A stretch of DNA of 62,395 bases, filler included, from Actinomycetota bacterium (GTDB lineage: Bacteria > Actinomycetota > CADDZG01 > JAHWKV01 > JAOPZY01): NCBI GenBank assembly GCA_025963875.1. It is 3 parts of 3 records of this genome, joined end to end, with 100 filler letters (N's around TTAATTAATTAA, not from the genome) between each part and the next. Parts side by side here need not be neighbours in the genome. Positions count along the whole stretch, not along the records: positions 14,531 to 38,542 come from JAOPZY010000130.1; 2 more parts are not named here. The stretch is one strand, 5' to 3'. The translations under genes were made by a program, and so were the position numbers. The notes beneath the pieces were generated by a model that was not told where the DNA came from, did no database searches, and saw only the letters and a list, made by a program, of their open reading frames with translations. This document shows, piece after piece, positions 14,531 to 42,531 of the stretch. Position 1 is the stretch's first letter; every line of letters starts with the position of its first letter.

Positions 14531-14869
14531 CGGCGCCAGATCGACATCGTGGAGCCCTACGACCCCTTCGACTACAAGGAGCTGCACCACCTGGAGGGCC
14601 TGCTGCTCTTCGACAGGGGCAAGGCGCCGGAGGCCGCCCGGGACGGCGTCCTGGACCGCGACGGCGACCTGCCCTCGTGCCCTTCGGGCGGCCTCCTCGG
14701 CGTCGGCAATCCCATTGCCGCGGCAGGTCTCATGAAGGTGGCCGAGTTGTTCTGGCAGTTGCGGGGCGAGGCCGGGGCGCGGCAGGTGCCGGGGACGCCG
14801 CACCGGGGCCTGGCGCAGGCCTGGGGCGACCTCATGCAGGTGGGCACCGTGATCGTGATGGGCCGCTGA
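14531..14869 (+). CDS. Thiolase-superfamily (SCP2/Ltp-type) protein, C-terminal part (5' partial)
   Basis: EPYDPFDYKELHHLEGL, PSGGLLGVGNPIAAAGLMKVAELFWQLRGEAGARQV. Confidence 0.85.
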   Translation, partial: RRQIDIVEPYDPFDYKELHHLEGLLLFDRGKAPEAARDGVLDRDGDLPSCPSGGLLGVGNPIAAAGLMKVAELFWQLRGEAGARQVPGTPHRGLAQAWGDLMQVGTVIVMGR

Positions 14870-16500: not shown

Positions 16501-17667
16501 ATGGACTTCGACCTTCCGCCGGAAACCGAGGAGTTCCGCAGGGTCGTGCGCTCGTTCGCCGAGGAGGTCGTACGGCCCGTAGCCGAACACTACGACGCAC
16601 GCTCCGAGTTCCCCCTCGAGGTCGTGCGCCAGATGGGAGAGCTGGGTCTGTTCGGCTTGGTGCTGCCGGAGCGCTACGGGGGGGCGGATGCCGAGTTCAT
16701 CACCTTGTGCGTCGCCATCGAGGAGCTGGCGCGGGTGGACTCGTCGGTGGCGATCACCCTGTCCGCCGGCGTCGGCCTGGGGGCGATGCCCTTCCTGCTG
16801 TTCGGAAGCGAGGACCAGAAGGAGACGTGGCTTCCGCCAATGGCAGCCGGCGAGGTGCTGGGGGCGTTCGGCCTGACGGAGGCGTCCGGAGGGTCCGATC
16901 TCTCGGCGCTGAGGACCGTGGCCACCCGTGACGGCGAGGAATGGGTGATCGACGGCTCGAAGGCATTCATCACCAACGCCGGGACGCCGCTGTCCAAGGT
17001 GGTGACCGTGGCGGCCATCACCGGCCGGTCGGAGGGCGGCAAGGAGATGAGCTCGATCGCCGTTGCCCACGGGACGCCCGGCTTCTGCGTCGGCCGGGAG
17101 TATCGCAAGCTCGGGTGGCGGGCCTCCGACACCAGGGAGCTGGTCTTCGAGGGCTGCCGGGTGCCGGTGACCAACCTCGTGGGGGAACAGGGGAGCGGCT
17201 ACCGCAACTTCCTCACGATCCTCGACGGGGGTCGCATCGCGATCGGCGCCCTCGCTGTGGGCCTGGCCCAGGGATGTCTCGACGAGAGCCTGCGGTACGC
17301 CCGCCAGCGGATGGCGTTCGGACGGGAGATCGGCGCCTACCAGGCGGTCCAGTTCAAGCTGGCCGACATGGCGACGAAGATCGCCGCAGCCCGGGATCAG
17401 ATCTACAAGGCGGCGTGGCTCCGCCAGCAGGGGCGCCGCTACAAGGCCGTGGCCTCGATGGCGAAGCTGTTCGCCTCCGAGGTGGCGATGGAGTGCGCCA
17501 GGGAGGCGGTGCAGATCCACGGTGGCTACGGCTACATCGAGGAGTTCCCGGTGGCCCGCCACTTCCGGGACGCAAAGATCCTGGAGATCGGCGAGGGAAC
17601 GTCCGAGGTGCAACGGATGCTGATTGCCAGGGAGCTCGGCCTGCCGGGGGCCGTGCCCGGCAGCTAA
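16501..17667 (+). CDS. Acyl-CoA dehydrogenase
   Basis: GAFGLTEASGGSD, GSKAFITNAG, QIHGGYGYIEEFPVARHFRDAKILEIGEGTSEVQR. Confidence 0.96.
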   Translation: MDFDLPPETEEFRRVVRSFAEEVVRPVAEHYDARSEFPLEVVRQMGELGLFGLVLPERYGGADAEFITLCVAIEELARVDSSVAITLSAGVGLGAMPFLLFGSEDQKETWLPPMAAGEVLGAFGLTEASGGSDLSALRTVATRDGEEWVIDGSKAFITNAGTPLSKVVTVAAITGRSEGGKEMSSIAVAHGTPGFCVGREYRKLGWRASDTRELVFEGCRVPVTNLVGEQGSGYRNFLTILDGGRIAIGALAVGLAQGCLDESLRYARQRMAFGREIGAYQAVQFKLADMATKIAAARDQIYKAAWLRQQGRRYKAVASMAKLFASEVAMECAREAVQIHGGYGYIEEFPVARHFRDAKILEIGEGTSEVQRMLIARELGLPGAVPGS

Positions 17668-17869: not shown

Positions 17870-18292
17870 ATGGCGCAGAATCCACAACCGGTGCCGGACA
17901 GCGAATCTCTGCCCGCCCGGCATGCCGAGGCCAACGAGTCCCTCTTTGTCACCCCGGCCGGGGTGATCTCCATGCTGCGACGCTACCGGGATGTCTTTGA
18001 TCCCAAGACGACCTCGATTCTCCTCGTCTCCAGGCAGGGATTCGACCCGACCCAGGGTCCGTTCCGGGCAGGGTTCGTCAGCAGGTTGGACGAGCGGGAG
18101 GAGCTCCGCCGGCGTATGACCGATCGGCTGGCGGAGCGGGAGCGCAGACTTCTGTTCCTCTGGTACGTGATGGAGTTGCGGCCGGGGGACGTGGCCCGCA
18201 GGATCCGCGTCTCGAGGGTGCACTGTTACCGCCTCCGGCAGGCTGCCCTCTCCGCCCTCTGCGACGAAGAGGCCTCCGAAACCGCCTCCTAA
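17870..18292 (+). CDS. Small protein with a sigma-70 region 4-like HTH
   Basis: LAERERRLLFLWYVMELRPGDVARRIRVSRVHCYRLRQAAL; no region 2 recognised. Confidence 0.7.
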   Translation: MAQNPQPVPDSESLPARHAEANESLFVTPAGVISMLRRYRDVFDPKTTSILLVSRQGFDPTQGPFRAGFVSRLDEREELRRRMTDRLAERERRLLFLWYVMELRPGDVARRIRVSRVHCYRLRQAALSALCDEEASETAS

Positions 18293-18323
18293 ACCCAATA
18301 CCGTTATCTCGCGGGGGCAGAAT

Positions 18324-18372
18324 ATTCTTTGTTTGTTTCACCGCGATATACGCGGTAAAGCAAACAAAGAAT
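18324..18372. repeat. AT-rich palindrome (family copy b); may act as a terminator
   Basis: ATTCTTTGTTTG...ACCGCG-ATATA-CGCGGT...CAAACAAAGAAT. Confidence 0.7.
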
Positions 18373-18499
18373 TCCGGCGGTCGTCGTCGAAGGCCAGATG
18401 CCGGCCCCGGTTCCGAACGGGCGCCCTCGGACCCGGACGCGCTAGCGAGCCCCCCCGGGGGGGAAGGGGCTCGGTAGCGGGCTGCCGGTTAGTGCCCGG

Positions 18500-18630
18500 T
18501 TAGGGCTTGGCGCCGATGTGGACGATGTCTGGCCGACCCTCTGCTCCGAGGCTGCCCTGGAAGGTCCCATCCCCGAAGTTGAAGACGCCGCCGTCCGAGG
18601 CCACCAGGCAGTAGCCCTGCTGCACATAGG
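18500..18630 (-). pseudogene. Remnant of a surface-protein repeat
   Basis: GYCLVASDGGVFNFGDGTFQGSLG resembles the GYWLVASDGGVFxFGD repeat of actinobacterial surface proteins; single isolated copy. Confidence 0.5.
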
Positions 18631-18961
18631 GGGCGGGAATGGCGGCCTGGACGCTCAGTCTGCCGGCAGCTCGGCCTCGAGTTCGTCCAGTTCGCATACG
18701 TATCCTTCTCGTGCAATGGCTGGCCGGTACCGCAGGACTGCGCGTACCGCGCACGGGCTTCCGGGTGGGAGCCATGGATGCCTCCAACCGGCTGACCATC
18801 GGTGACGGCTGGGGGGAGTCTGCCTGGACATTACTCTCCAATAGTCCCCGGTGCTAGAGCATTTGGAAGATACGTCGAAAAAGTGTTCATTACGCAGAAC
18901 ATTGGTCCCACATTGTTTGCCGGTTATTCCGTTCCTTCCTCCTTCCGTACGGTAATCCCCG

Positions 18962-19147
18962 GTGGCGTTCAGCTACACGGTGCCCAATGCCTTGGCGGGG
19001 GGGCTCTACCGGCTGAGCGTCCAGAACCAGGCCACCGTGTATCCGGACCGCCTGTCGGTGGACGTGATGCTGCCCGACGGGGTGCACCTTCCCGACGGGG
19101 CGCCAACGACGCCGGCGGCAGCTCACTGGCAGCGCATTGACGGCTGA
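18962..19147 (+). pseudogene. Probable C-terminal gene fragment (DUF4012-like)
   Basis: FSYTVPNA...YRLSVQNQATVYPDRLSVDVMLPDG; coding-like stretch without a convincing start. Confidence 0.35.
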
Positions 19148-19176
19148 TCTCTACCAACTTCGAAAATGGCGAGGTC

Positions 19177-19206
19177 TTGACAATGTTACAGAAACGGCGG
19201 TAACTT
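19177..19206 (+). promoter_or_regulatory. Sigma70-type promoter of the repeat-protein leader
   Basis: TTGACA-N18-TAACTT. Confidence 0.65.
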
Positions 19207-19299
19207 CCTACTCGGAAAAGAGTCGTTCCCCCTGCGGCTCTTGTCCGCCACCGAGCCGTCTCTGGCCGGCCCTCAAAGGGAAGCCAGGGACGCTTCGAC

Positions 19300-19400
19300 C
19301 CCCTGACGTTGCCGGAGCCTGGGCACCGTGGAGGTATGGGGATCCCTCCTGCGATCCGAACCCACGGCTGCGGCTACAGCTCCCGCCAGTGCAAGGTGCT
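19300..19400 (+). ncRNA. Candidate cis-regulatory RNA, possibly a c-di-AMP (ydaO-like) riboswitch variant
   Basis: Lies between the promoter and a leader terminator; contains GCCGGAGCCTGGGCACC, GGGGATCCCTCC, CCGAACCC...ACAGCT, reminiscent of ydaO motifs. Confidence 0.4.
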
Positions 19401-19433
19401 TGTCGTTGTCGCCTGCCCTGGTGGGTCTTGCTC

Positions 19434-19473
19434 AAAGGGCCCGCCGAGCCTCCTCGGCGGGCCCTTTTTCTTC
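19434..19473 (+). terminator. Intrinsic terminator in the 5' leader
   Basis: Perfect stem AAAGGGCCCGCCGAG-cctc-CTCGGCGGGCCCTTT running into TTCTTC, about 40 nt before the start codon. Confidence 0.85.
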
Positions 19474-19513
19474 AACTGTTCGTCAATCCCACGCAGAAAA
19501 GGATGGAGGACGT

Positions 19514-22144
19514 ATGCGACGTAAGCAGGGTCGGCAAGGTCGGCAAGGTCGGCAAGGTAAAGGCACAAACAGCAGTTTGACGGCAAGAGTCACGCTGCTT
19601 GGCGGGGCGATCCCGCGCGTGCTGGTGATGCTCTCGTTGGCGGTGCTGGTCCTGAGTTGGGGGGCGACGACCACCTCCGCCTCCCCGTCCGGGGATCGCG
19701 AGACCGTTGCCGGTGGGTGGACGCGCGGCGAGGTGATCAGCTCCGGCCTCTATCACACCTGCGCCCTGAAGAGCGACGGCACCGCCACCTGCTGGGGCCT
19801 CAACGGGTCCGGGCAGGCCACGGCGCCCGGCGGCACCTTCGTTTCGATCAGCTCCGGCGGCTCCCACACGTGCGCGATCCACAGCGACGGGACCGTCGCC
19901 TGCTGGGGCGACAACACCTACGGGCAGAGCACACCGCCAGCCGGCACCTTCACCGCGATCACCACCGGTGGCTCTCATTCGTGCGGCATCAAGACCGATG
20001 GCAGCGCCGCCTGCTGGGGCTCCAACAGCAGCGGGCAGACCACCCTGCCGCCCGCACTGGGCACGATCAGCGCGATCAGCGCCGGCGCCCTGCACACGTG
20101 CGCGATCAAGAGCAACGGCCTCCCCCTGTGCTGGGGCCTCAACACGGACGGGCAGGCCACCCCGACGGGAACGCTCGGTACCTTCAGCTCGATCAGCTCG
20201 GGCGGCTCGCATTCTTGCGGCATCAAGACCGACGGCACCGCCGTGTGCTGGGGCCTCAACAACTACGGGCAGGGCACCCCGCCGGCCGGACTCGGCACCA
20301 TTGGATCGATCAGCGCCGGTCACGTGCAGACGTGCGCGATCAAGAGCAACGGCGCTGCCGTCTGCTGGGGCTATAGCGGCTCCGGCGCCGCGCCTGCGGG
20401 GTTGACCACGCTCCAGGCGGTCAGCGTCGGGGGCCTGCATGTCTGCGCGCTCCGCAGTGACGGTAGCGCCGCCTGCTGGGGCGACAACACCTACGGGCAA
20501 AGCACTGCGCCGGCCGGATTGCAGGTCGTCACGACGGTCAGTGTCGGGCTCCACCACACGTGCTCGATCAAGTCGGACACCACCATCGGCTGCTGGGGCG
20601 ACAACACCTTCGGGCAGAGCCTCCCGCCGGCCTCGTTGACCACGACCACCGCGGTTGCCACCGGGATGAATCACTCGTGCGCCATCAGAGGCAGCGACAG
20701 CACCGCCGTCTGCTGGGGCGACAACACCTTCGGGCAGAGCGCCCCCACCGGGACGATCGGCGCCCTCACCGCGGTCAGCGCCGGCGGCAATCACTCGTGC
20801 GCGATCAAGGCCAACACCACCCCGGTCTGCTGGGGCAGCAATGCAAATGGGATGAGCGTCCCGCCCGGGGTGACCTTCACTGCGATCAGCGCCGGCGGCG
20901 GTCACACGTGCGGGATCAAGGGCAACGGCACCGCCGCCTGCTGGGGCCTCAACAACTACGGGCAGAGCACCCCCCCCGTGACGGCCACCTACACCGCGAT
21001 CAGCGCTGGTGACAACAACACCTGCGCGATCAAGACCGACGGCACCGTCGGCTGCTGGGGCTACGACGGTGACGGGCAGAGCACGCCCCCGCCCGGGTTG
21101 GGCACCGTCCTCCAGGTCAGCGCCGGCTCCTCGCACTCGTGCGCGATCAAGACCGACAACACCGTCGCCTGCTGGGGCTTTGGCATCTACGGGCAGAACA
21201 GCCCACCGGGCGGGTTGGGCACCGCCACCAACATCAGCGCCGGCACGACGAACACATGCGCGGTCAAAACCGGCGGTACCACGGCCTGCTGGGGCGACAA
21301 CAGCTACGGGCAGAGTGTCGCGCCGGCCGGGTTGGGCACCGTCACCGCGCTCACGACCGGCCTCTTCCACACCTGCTCGATCAAGACCGACGGGAGGACC
21401 GCCTGCTGGGGCGACACCAGCTACGGGCAGATCACCCCGATCACCGGCACCGTCAACGCGATCAGCGCCGGCGACAACAACACCTGCGCGATCAAGAGCG
21501 ACGGCACCGTCGCCTGCTGGGGCTCCAACAGCGACGGGCAGAACACCGTGCCGGCCGGGCTGGGCCCCCTCACGGCTATCAGCGCCGGCGGCTCACACAC
21601 CTGTGGGATCAAACCCGACAGCACCGCCGTCTGCTGGGGCGGCAACGCCTACGGGCAGGCCACCTTGCCTGGCGGCATCGGCACCCTCAACGCGATCGGT
21701 GCCGGCTGGGTGAACACGTGCGCCATCAAGACCAACAGCACCGCCTCCTGCTGGGGCTACGCCGCCTACGGTGTCAACACCGTGCCGGCCGGGCTGGTCA
21801 CCGTCACCGCGATCAGCGTCGGGGGGCTGAATGCGTGCGCCATCAGAGTTACCGGCACCGTGGCCTGCTGGGGCTCCAACGCCTACGGGCAGAGCACCCC
21901 GCCTGCGCCGACGTCCACCTACACCGCGATCAGCGCCGGCTTCTACCACTCGTGCGCGCTCCTCGCCGACGGGTCCGCCTCGTGCTGGGGTCTCAACAAC
22001 GTCGGGCAGGCCATCCCGCCGGCCGGCACCTTCACCTCCATCAGCGCCGGTGGCTTCCACACGTGTGCGAAGAAGACCGATGGCACGACCGCCTGTTGGG
22101 GTGACAACTTCTTCGGCCAGAGCACCCCGCTCGCCGGAGGATGA
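19514..22144 (+). CDS. Secreted RCC1/BLIP-II/crinkly-like beta-propeller repeat protein (876 aa, 21 repeats)
   Basis: GGAGGA RBS; signal peptide with a basic N-region ((QGR)x3) and ASA cleavage site; 21 counted repeats of ISAGxxHTCAIKxDGTxxCWGxNxYGQ. Confidence 0.9.
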   Translation: MRRKQGRQGRQGRQGKGTNSSLTARVTLLGGAIPRVLVMLSLAVLVLSWGATTTSASPSGDRETVAGGWTRGEVISSGLYHTCALKSDGTATCWGLNGSGQATAPGGTFVSISSGGSHTCAIHSDGTVACWGDNTYGQSTPPAGTFTAITTGGSHSCGIKTDGSAACWGSNSSGQTTLPPALGTISAISAGALHTCAIKSNGLPLCWGLNTDGQATPTGTLGTFSSISSGGSHSCGIKTDGTAVCWGLNNYGQGTPPAGLGTIGSISAGHVQTCAIKSNGAAVCWGYSGSGAAPAGLTTLQAVSVGGLHVCALRSDGSAACWGDNTYGQSTAPAGLQVVTTVSVGLHHTCSIKSDTTIGCWGDNTFGQSLPPASLTTTTAVATGMNHSCAIRGSDSTAVCWGDNTFGQSAPTGTIGALTAVSAGGNHSCAIKANTTPVCWGSNANGMSVPPGVTFTAISAGGGHTCGIKGNGTAACWGLNNYGQSTPPVTATYTAISAGDNNTCAIKTDGTVGCWGYDGDGQSTPPPGLGTVLQVSAGSSHSCAIKTDNTVACWGFGIYGQNSPPGGLGTATNISAGTTNTCAVKTGGTTACWGDNSYGQSVAPAGLGTVTALTTGLFHTCSIKTDGRTACWGDTSYGQITPITGTVNAISAGDNNTCAIKSDGTVACWGSNSDGQNTVPAGLGPLTAISAGGSHTCGIKPDSTAVCWGGNAYGQATLPGGIGTLNAIGAGWVNTCAIKTNSTASCWGYAAYGVNTVPAGLVTVTAISVGGLNACAIRVTGTVACWGSNAYGQSTPPAPTSTYTAISAGFYHSCALLADGSASCWGLNNVGQAIPPAGTFTSISAGGFHTCAKKTDGTTACWGDNFFGQSTPLAGG

Positions 22145-40637: not shown

Positions 40638-42505
<1,868 letters not shown>

Positions 42506-42531
42506 AGCCCATCCTACTGCCTTCTCCCCGC

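Follow-up and report, generated by a model that had tools for sequence, protein, structure and literature searches.

A conserved leader RNA with a predicted terminator before an RCC1-repeat gene: a candidate attenuator restricted to one lineage of soil Actinomycetota

Introduction

In riboswitches and attenuators a conserved sensor is usually joined to a faster-changing expression platform. The ydaO class of riboswitches has a pseudo-symmetric fold, whereas 6C RNA acts through C-rich loops, and RNAs of the 6S/Ms1 kind are abundant in Actinomycetota. Ms1 is defined by a 6S-like fold combined with synteny with HAD-IB hydrolase/oxidoreductase genes (PMC9130861), and the yjdF motif is described as an orphan riboswitch candidate tied to one gene of unknown function (PMC4793209). 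Here we compare with these systems a leader RNA that stands before a gene for an RCC1-repeat protein in an uncultured actinomycetotal lineage.

Results

The locus and its likely transcription start

The window, by which we mean the whole stretch of DNA that was analysed (62,395 nucleotides), comes from a genome (G000) of 273 contigs that is 94.6% complete. Since the window consists of several contigs joined, distances across contig borders within it are not real; the locus lies in positions 14531–38542, which are one 24-kb contig (C7). The sole congeneric genome with the locus is an Actinomycetota MAG (G001). The genes and the promoter are arranged as follows:

16501–17667, + strand: acyl-CoA dehydrogenase gene, the upstream neighbour
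17870–18292, + strand: conserved 140-aa ORF, HTH-like, with a weak sigma-70 region-4 match
19177–19182, + strand: -35 hexamer TTGACA, where a block begins on the left that G001, G005 and 12 metagenome contigs share unchanged
19201–19206, + strand: -10 hexamer TAACTT, after an 18-nt spacer from the -35 hexamer
19505–19516, + strand: Shine-Dalgarno sequence GGAGG (19505–19509) and start codon ATG (19514)
19514–22144, + strand: RCC1-repeat gene of 876 aa; N-terminus signal-peptide-like, RCC1 repeats along the whole protein

The 140-aa ORF (17870–18292) is kept at 80–87% amino acid identity in 10 metagenome contigs; it has no Pfam match, and its match to sigma-70 region 4 (HTH), at E 8e-6, is far under the cut-off. 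It is possible that it specifies a small DNA-binding protein linked to the leader/RCC1 module. The ~885 nt between this ORF and the promoter (18293–19176) hold no conserved reading frame and, in the scanned part (18800 onwards), no Rfam match; there are patches of 70–89% nucleotide identity to relatives within them, e.g., at ~18432–18543.

The RCC1 protein has 19 stretches of Pfam RCC1_2 (E 6.5e-153) and is 70.8% identical in amino acids to its orthologue in G001, with dN 0.19, dS 0.44 and dN/dS 0.44. The label of "surface protein" given to it in the preliminary description goes further than the sequence does: the N-terminus is signal-peptide-like, the RCC1 repeats run to the end, and no anchor is seen by eye. 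Ahead of the signal peptide is a variable-number repeat, a 9-nt unit GGTCGGCAA that occurs three times at 19529–19555 (RQG three times at the N-terminus of the protein) and twice in a near-identical contig (L018). A second RCC1-repeat gene of the same genome (G000:C159:1722–2555; L025), 41% identical to residues 546–820, has no copy of the leader RNA (nhmmer, genome G000).

The elements with which the preliminary description began, namely a TTGACA/TAACTT promoter, a leader of ~300 nt, a perfect 15-bp hairpin with a T-rich tail and a ribosome-binding site, can all be read in the sequence. The -10 hexamer is TACCTT, TATCTT or TACATT in relatives, giving the form TANNNT, which is the usual actinobacterial form of this box. 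The likely 5' end is 19214 (GGAAAAG...), from which 300 nt lead to the ATG, 19513 being the last leader base. A consensus scan of the window listed neither the leader promoter nor the hairpin. TAACTT fits just three of the six positions of TATAAT, and the hairpin was missed, on our reading, because its stem absorbs three of the T's. The same scan called the orthologous hairpin a terminator in one relative (L011) and did not in another (L010), where the hairpin has almost no U tail. No other promoter-like site was found by the scan between hairpin and ATG, in the window or on the same strand in L010 and L011. Because the window offers neither room nor signal for another promoter, the intact RCC1 gene must be transcribed through the hairpin.

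Four soil RNA-library runs, chosen from 20 listed, were compared with positions 18700–20500, and the stretch that they cover is:

19214–19389, + strand: P1–P3 of the leader (see below) and a further 13 nt, covered by contigs of two studies

The two runs of one study gave contigs at 19214–19389 (X2, mean word depth 95) and 19214–19392 (X6), both of which begin 8 nt past the -10 box, while a run of the other study gave a contig at 19276–19384 (X7) from a relative with an insertion in P2. Assembled contigs cannot prove transcript ends or transcription; their shared start does support a start site at 19214, and a start downstream of the hairpin, on which the preliminary description had been prepared to give up its reading, is not what they display. 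Their ends at 19384–19392, in two studies, hint weakly at best at a processed 3' end or a stable piece of ~176 nt. The X2 and X6 contigs cover neither 18700–19213, nor P4 and the terminator, nor the gene, and this missing cover is not counted as evidence of termination, of an off state or of a 3' end at the terminator; low-depth contigs of relatives in X8 and X7 lie on parts of the RCC1 gene.

The fold of the leader

The 316-nt leader folds with z = -4.3, none of 100 shuffles being as good, and its 176-nt P1–P3 part with z = -2.2 (5 of 200 shuffles as good). The consensus structure computed with RNAalifold on nine sequences consists of P1, P2, a C-rich linker, P3, P4 and the terminator. The predicted fold of P1–P3, which we take as the sensor part, is thus of three hairpins in a row:

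19214–19246, + strand: P1, hairpin at the 5' end with loop UUCCCCCUG; 13 of 13 pairs invariant
19252–19297, + strand: P2, hairpin whose tip carries an extra hairpin of 30–33 nt (P2b) in most relatives
19298–19309, + strand: C-rich single-stranded linker ACCCCCUGACGU, invariant
19310–19376, + strand: P3, long irregular hairpin with invariant internal loops and UGGGGAU at its tip

The P1 loop and the linker each hold an invariant CCCCCUG run. The tip of P2 appears to tolerate large insertions, given that P2b is present in most relatives and absent from the window's type. P2b resembles a REP-like genomic repeat. Such a hairpin repeat (approximately CCCGAGGCGCCCCTCAAGGCGCCGGAT) has many copies in G000, where GGCGCC-N3-6-GGCGCC occurs 147 times against 20–94 for four control patterns, and REP-like hairpins are found in the P2 tip or the hairpin-to-ATG spacers of L003, L009–L012, L017 and L019.

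Comparison with described RNA families

When cmscan was run against all 4227 Rfam families no family matched, in agreement with the preliminary view that the RNA belongs to none described so far. Scans at E<=10 were made of a 1001-nt region and of the 228-nt sensor part alone. The region gave only far-sub-threshold matches, the best being ar14 with 26 bits against a cut-off of 58.8, and those for which alignments were displayed are driven by the terminator hairpin; the sensor part alone reached 16 bits, on the wrong strand. The T-box, 6S, 6C and all riboswitch families are absent from the E<=10 lists at the locus. The only gathering-score Rfam match in the window lies elsewhere, on a different contig, and is a TPP riboswitch (42401–42510, - strand; 55.7 bits against a gathering score of 54.3). 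A literature search on RCC1 and riboswitch candidates returned neither such an RNA nor any paper naming RCC1 among the matches listed, while supplements of motif surveys could hold it, and nothing relevant came from a search for small RNAs of unknown kind that are abundant in soil Actinobacteria.

The preliminary description had proposed a divergent c-di-AMP (ydaO) or c-di-GMP-II riboswitch. The strings that led to this proposal (GCCGGAGCCTGGGCACC, CCGAACCC, ACAGCT and AGTGCAA) are all present in the leader, those that speak for it being the short strings GGAGCC, CCGAACCC and ACAGCT, and by analogy an attenuator before a secreted protein would suit control by a second messenger. The likeness is not confirmed by the Rfam models, however, and a link to cyclic dinucleotides is not supported: neither ydaO (RF00379) nor c-di-GMP-II (RF01786), nor any other riboswitch among the 4227 families, aligned at E<=10. 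RF00379 (cut-off 38 bits) gave nothing at the locus at its gathering score and nothing in the whole genome at E<=0.001; its controls were found in B. subtilis and C. glutamicum (2 of 14 genomes). With a predicted fold of three hairpins in a row as well, we hold this reading to be highly improbable.

An RNA that binds RNA polymerase, of the 6S/Ms1 kind, would fit a length of ~176–260 nt, a strong promoter and presence in RNA libraries, the more so in a genome that holds no match to RF00013 (6S) anywhere. RF01066 (6C) was likewise found neither at the locus nor in the whole genome. The absence of RF00013 from the locus itself counts against such an RNA, as do three separate hairpins in place of a rod with a central bubble and a distribution at the level of a genus. 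Its neighbours are the acyl-CoA dehydrogenase gene, the small HTH-like ORF and the RCC1 gene, and the synteny with HAD-IB hydrolase/oxidoreductase that serves to define Ms1 (PMC9130861) is absent. We regard this reading as scarcely probable.

Distribution and linkage to the RCC1 gene

A BLAST search over 41 genomes found the leader in G001, of the same genus, with 78% identity over bases 1–327, together with a promoter match in another genus (G005). A 21-base promoter word led to 12 soil metagenome contigs, all of which continue with the leader RNA as far as they reach, and promoter, RNA and hairpin are accordingly kept in one other genome and 12 metagenome contigs. Among 27 genomes of the order a covariance model of P1–P3 (R1) detects the RNA in two, and a wider search of 113 genomes of the class likewise yields two; in pattern scans of the genome contig collection the G001 contig was the sole match. 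Searches of the family's four other genomes gave neither the leader RNA nor an orthologue of the RCC1 gene (E<=1e-20), and nhmmer revealed no second copies in G000, where the RNA is single-copy. No genome searched outside this genus-level group gave a match to the RNA.

The RCC1 gene follows the RNA in all eight related loci that reach the start codon (G001 and seven metagenome contigs). A general link between the RNA and the RCC1 family was considered and rejected, as the RNA stands beside just 1 of 79 RCC1-family loci from other organisms, this being the G001 orthologue. The distribution, the linkage and the single copy together lead us to view the RNA and the RCC1 gene as one lineage-restricted module.

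The match in G005 (L005:1494–1526, - strand) is of 33 nt, with 94% identity and 26 of 26 positions in the core, and spans TTGACA, the spacer, the -10 box and the first transcribed bases. It lies in a ~570-nt gap between divergent methyltransferase and convergent phosphotyrosine-phosphatase genes, at a locus that has neither the leader RNA nor an RCC1 gene. The shared promoter spacer might serve as an operator or be left over from the module. As a distant homologue of the RNA the G005 locus was discarded: it has no match to model R1, and its fold is like that of shuffles (z = 0.14).

Selection, covariation and coding potential

The identity of the window to seven relatives differs sharply along the locus:

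P1–P3: 93–95%
Promoter: 89–94%
P4 plus terminator: 75–78%
First 330 nt of the RCC1 gene: 75–78%
Spacer from hairpin to ATG: 43–72%
Upstream DNA: 43–54%

With ~7% differences against a dS of 0.44 in the adjacent gene (G000–G001), P1–P3 evolves at about one sixth of the synonymous rate. Judged by these comparisons, P1–P3 is under strong purifying selection and its likeness is not simply a matter of recent shared ancestry.

Covariation among homologous leaders had been put forward in the preliminary description as a check on the structure, and it gives no such backing: among the nine aligned sequences no pair of P1–P4 changes on both sides, and 52 of its 65 pairs never vary. Over the whole alignment 89 pairs are found, 96% of cells are paired, and the sequences are 89% identical on average; three pairs change on both sides, one in the inserted P2 hairpin and two in the terminator. 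Sequences so alike leave little room for double changes in P1–P4, and covariation cannot decide here. For the structure of the sensor part we therefore have fold energy and conservation to rely on.

The same absence of covariation, along with the narrow distribution, would agree with a leader that has no function as RNA and is kept for DNA-level reasons, through recent transfer or for a small peptide. An ATG at 19336 does open a frame of 62 codons, which ends 11 nt into the RCC1 gene, but in L009 and L017 this codon is ACG. P1–P3 is 164, 194, 196 or 197 nt long, which breaks any frame, and a long ORF from an in-frame GTG at 19328 runs through the hairpin and the variable spacer; both frames were rejected as coding. 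As these frames are not conserved, the constraint is on RNA or DNA and not on a peptide. The contrast between ~7% differences and a dS of 0.44 and the RNA-library contigs over the stretch also count against this reading, which is in our estimate very improbable; given the selection, the absence of any function is unlikely.

The predicted terminator and its competing pairings

Downstream of P3 lie three predicted hairpins that share strands:

19382–19425, + strand: P4 hairpin (CCCGCCAG...CUGGUGGG), -20 to -25 kcal/mol, evolving faster than P1–P3
19417–19448, + strand: alternative antiterminator hairpin of the P4 3' arm GGUGGGUCU and the terminator 5' arm GGGCCCGCC
19434–19475, + strand: terminator hairpin (stem-loop 19434–19467) and U-rich tail

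The GC-rich terminator stem (AAAGGGCCCGCCGAG, loop CCTC, CTCGGCGGGCCCTTT) consists of 15 perfect pairs, with TTCTTC after it; two of its pairs are changed on both sides among relatives with the pairing kept. By computation the P4 3' arm, GGUGGG[U/C]CU, can pair either with the P4 5' arm or with the terminator 5' arm GGGCCCGCC. In eight of eight sequences the energies are -20.2 to -24.7 kcal/mol for P4, -16.2 to -20.1 for the antiterminator and -31.7 to -35.9 for the terminator, so that the antiterminator hairpin is computed to be about as stable as P4. Between 5 and 69 of 1000 shuffles of the P4 3' arm match the antiterminator energy. Once the terminator 3' arm is omitted, the antiterminator appears in the minimum-energy fold of the window, L011 and L014. 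There is thus a predicted terminator between start and ribosome-binding site and a computed alternative pairing that excludes it, as in an expression platform. L012 and L019 have a change for which the terminator compensates but which leaves the antiterminator weaker, at -16.2 kcal/mol and with 69 of 1000 shuffles doing as well. The P3 5' strand was also tried as a partner of the P4 5' arm (RNAduplex, -15 to -23 kcal/mol) and rejected as far weaker than P3 and inconsistent between sequences.

The hairpin-to-ATG spacer is 45 nt in the window and up to ~230 nt in relatives, with 0–3 repeat copies. The hairpin is accordingly not tied to the ribosome-binding site, since the spacer varies and takes up repeat elements.

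Discussion

The preliminary description had seen an attenuator layout before the repeat-protein gene, and that view stands in so far as promoter, structured leader and terminator are all present. Along with this layout we observe a conservation pattern that separates P1–P3 from what follows, competing pairings, and RNA-library contigs over P1–P3. We tentatively favour a reading in which the leader is a lineage-restricted, signal-dependent transcription attenuator of the RCC1-repeat gene, at a probability that falls a little short of even. Transcription would start at ~19214, and the first 165 nt would fold into P1–P3 as the conserved sensor part. P4 would form next and then the terminator, 45 nt before the ATG, such that most transcripts would stop and the gene would be off; as P4 forms first, termination would be the default state. 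If the P4 5' arm were kept unpaired, the P4 3' arm might pair with the terminator 5' arm and the polymerase would read into the gene. The balance could be tipped by the binding of P1–P3 to a small molecule, a protein or a second RNA; the RCC1 gene itself offers no metabolic hint of a ligand. P1–P3 may, in addition, persist as a separate small RNA. That transcripts terminate or antiterminate, and that a signal exists, is what we infer for this attenuator.

Several observations weigh against it. No double changes occur in the pairs of P1–P4 across nine sequences, and the RNA is single-copy, with 2 of 113 genomes of the class and 1 of 79 RCC1-family loci having it, whereas proven riboswitch classes are usually wider and multi-copy. 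The antiterminator is weakened in L012 and L019, L010 has almost no U tail, and the distance from hairpin to ATG ranges from 45 to ~230 nt. A terminated transcript is moreover expected to end at the terminator, whereas the contigs end at 19384–19392, inside the P4 5' arm, which suits a processed small RNA at least as well.

The last point bears directly on the chief rival reading, in which the locus is a small RNA gene that stands alone, has a promoter and terminator of its own and gives a stable RNA of ~176–260 nt acting in trans, for instance by contacting G-rich ribosome-binding sites with its C-rich loop and linker or by binding a protein, with the RCC1 gene merely downstream and fed by read-through. 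The conserved unit would then run, as it does, exactly from the -35 box to the hairpin, with the flanking DNA diverging on both sides. The RNA begins in a 5'-terminal stem, and the contigs form a discrete piece (19214–19392), that of X2 running after 19389 into what is presumably an Illumina adapter. The two invariant CCCCCUG runs in the P1 loop and the linker, the stems that are invariant in sequence and not covarying, as expected if the sequence itself is read, and the freely variable spacer to the gene are also in keeping with it. Such a small RNA accounts better than an attenuator for stems that do not vary, for single strands rich in C, for a spacer of variable length and for contigs that end before P4. 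It has more difficulty with an intact gene (dN/dS 0.44) that begins 45 nt past the hairpin with no other promoter and must be transcribed through the RNA, with the company of RNA and gene in all eight loci and the failure to find either of them in the family's four other genomes, and with the balanced arrangement of P4, antiterminator and terminator, which has no role in a plain small RNA. We hold a stand-alone gene to be possible, if on the unlikely side; it and the attenuator are not exclusive of each other.

A bolder form of the attenuator is that P1–P3 (19214–19376) might be the aptamer of a new riboswitch class of this uncultured soil lineage of Actinomycetota, which would bind a small molecule, open the terminator and switch on a secreted RCC1-type beta-propeller protein, with the same domain persisting after processing as a small RNA. 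We consider this improbable and offer it as speculation.

The finding remains a lead, given the narrow range and the lack of covariation. If the attenuator is real, a regulatory RNA not described before would operate in a lineage of soil actinobacteria for which metagenomes are the sole source, and identifying its signal could give a first hint of when secreted bacterial RCC1-repeat proteins are needed. With about one sixth of the change seen at synonymous sites next to it, and with its presence in RNA libraries from soil, this RNA domain is a good candidate for in-line probing or pull-down.

Comparison with known systems

The leader resembles 6C RNA (RF01066) in the C-rich hairpin loop UUCCCCCUG, in a second C-run in its single-stranded linker, and in coming from the same phylum. 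It differs in being 3–4 times longer, in having one C-rich hairpin loop as opposed to two, and in its position in cis, ahead of a gene from which a terminator separates it. With Ms1/6S RNA it shares the size class, a strong promoter and presence in RNA libraries, and it departs from these in having no rod-with-bubble fold, no HAD-IB hydrolase synteny and no match to the 6S model. The likeness to ydaO-yuaA (RF00379) and c-di-GMP-II (RF01786) is that of a leader before a secreted-protein gene in an actinobacterium with a few short strings in common; no covariance-model match was obtained at the thresholds tried, and the predicted architecture differs.

The closest parallels are with terminator-type riboswitches and attenuating leaders, orphan riboswitch candidates such as the yjdF motif included. 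Unlike these, the present leader is of genus-level distribution and single-copy, has a sensor domain to which covariation lends no support, and matches none of the 4227 Rfam families. It has in common with them a promoter followed by a long structured leader, a conserved 5' domain with a faster-evolving pair of hairpins, a terminator upstream of the ribosome-binding site, exclusive terminator and antiterminator pairings, and a single downstream gene. The opposition of P4 and terminator to the antiterminator is arranged like that of the classical attenuator design, in which pairings 1:2 and 3:4 stand against 2:3. We place the RNA as a new family within a known kind of element, the leader that carries a terminator.
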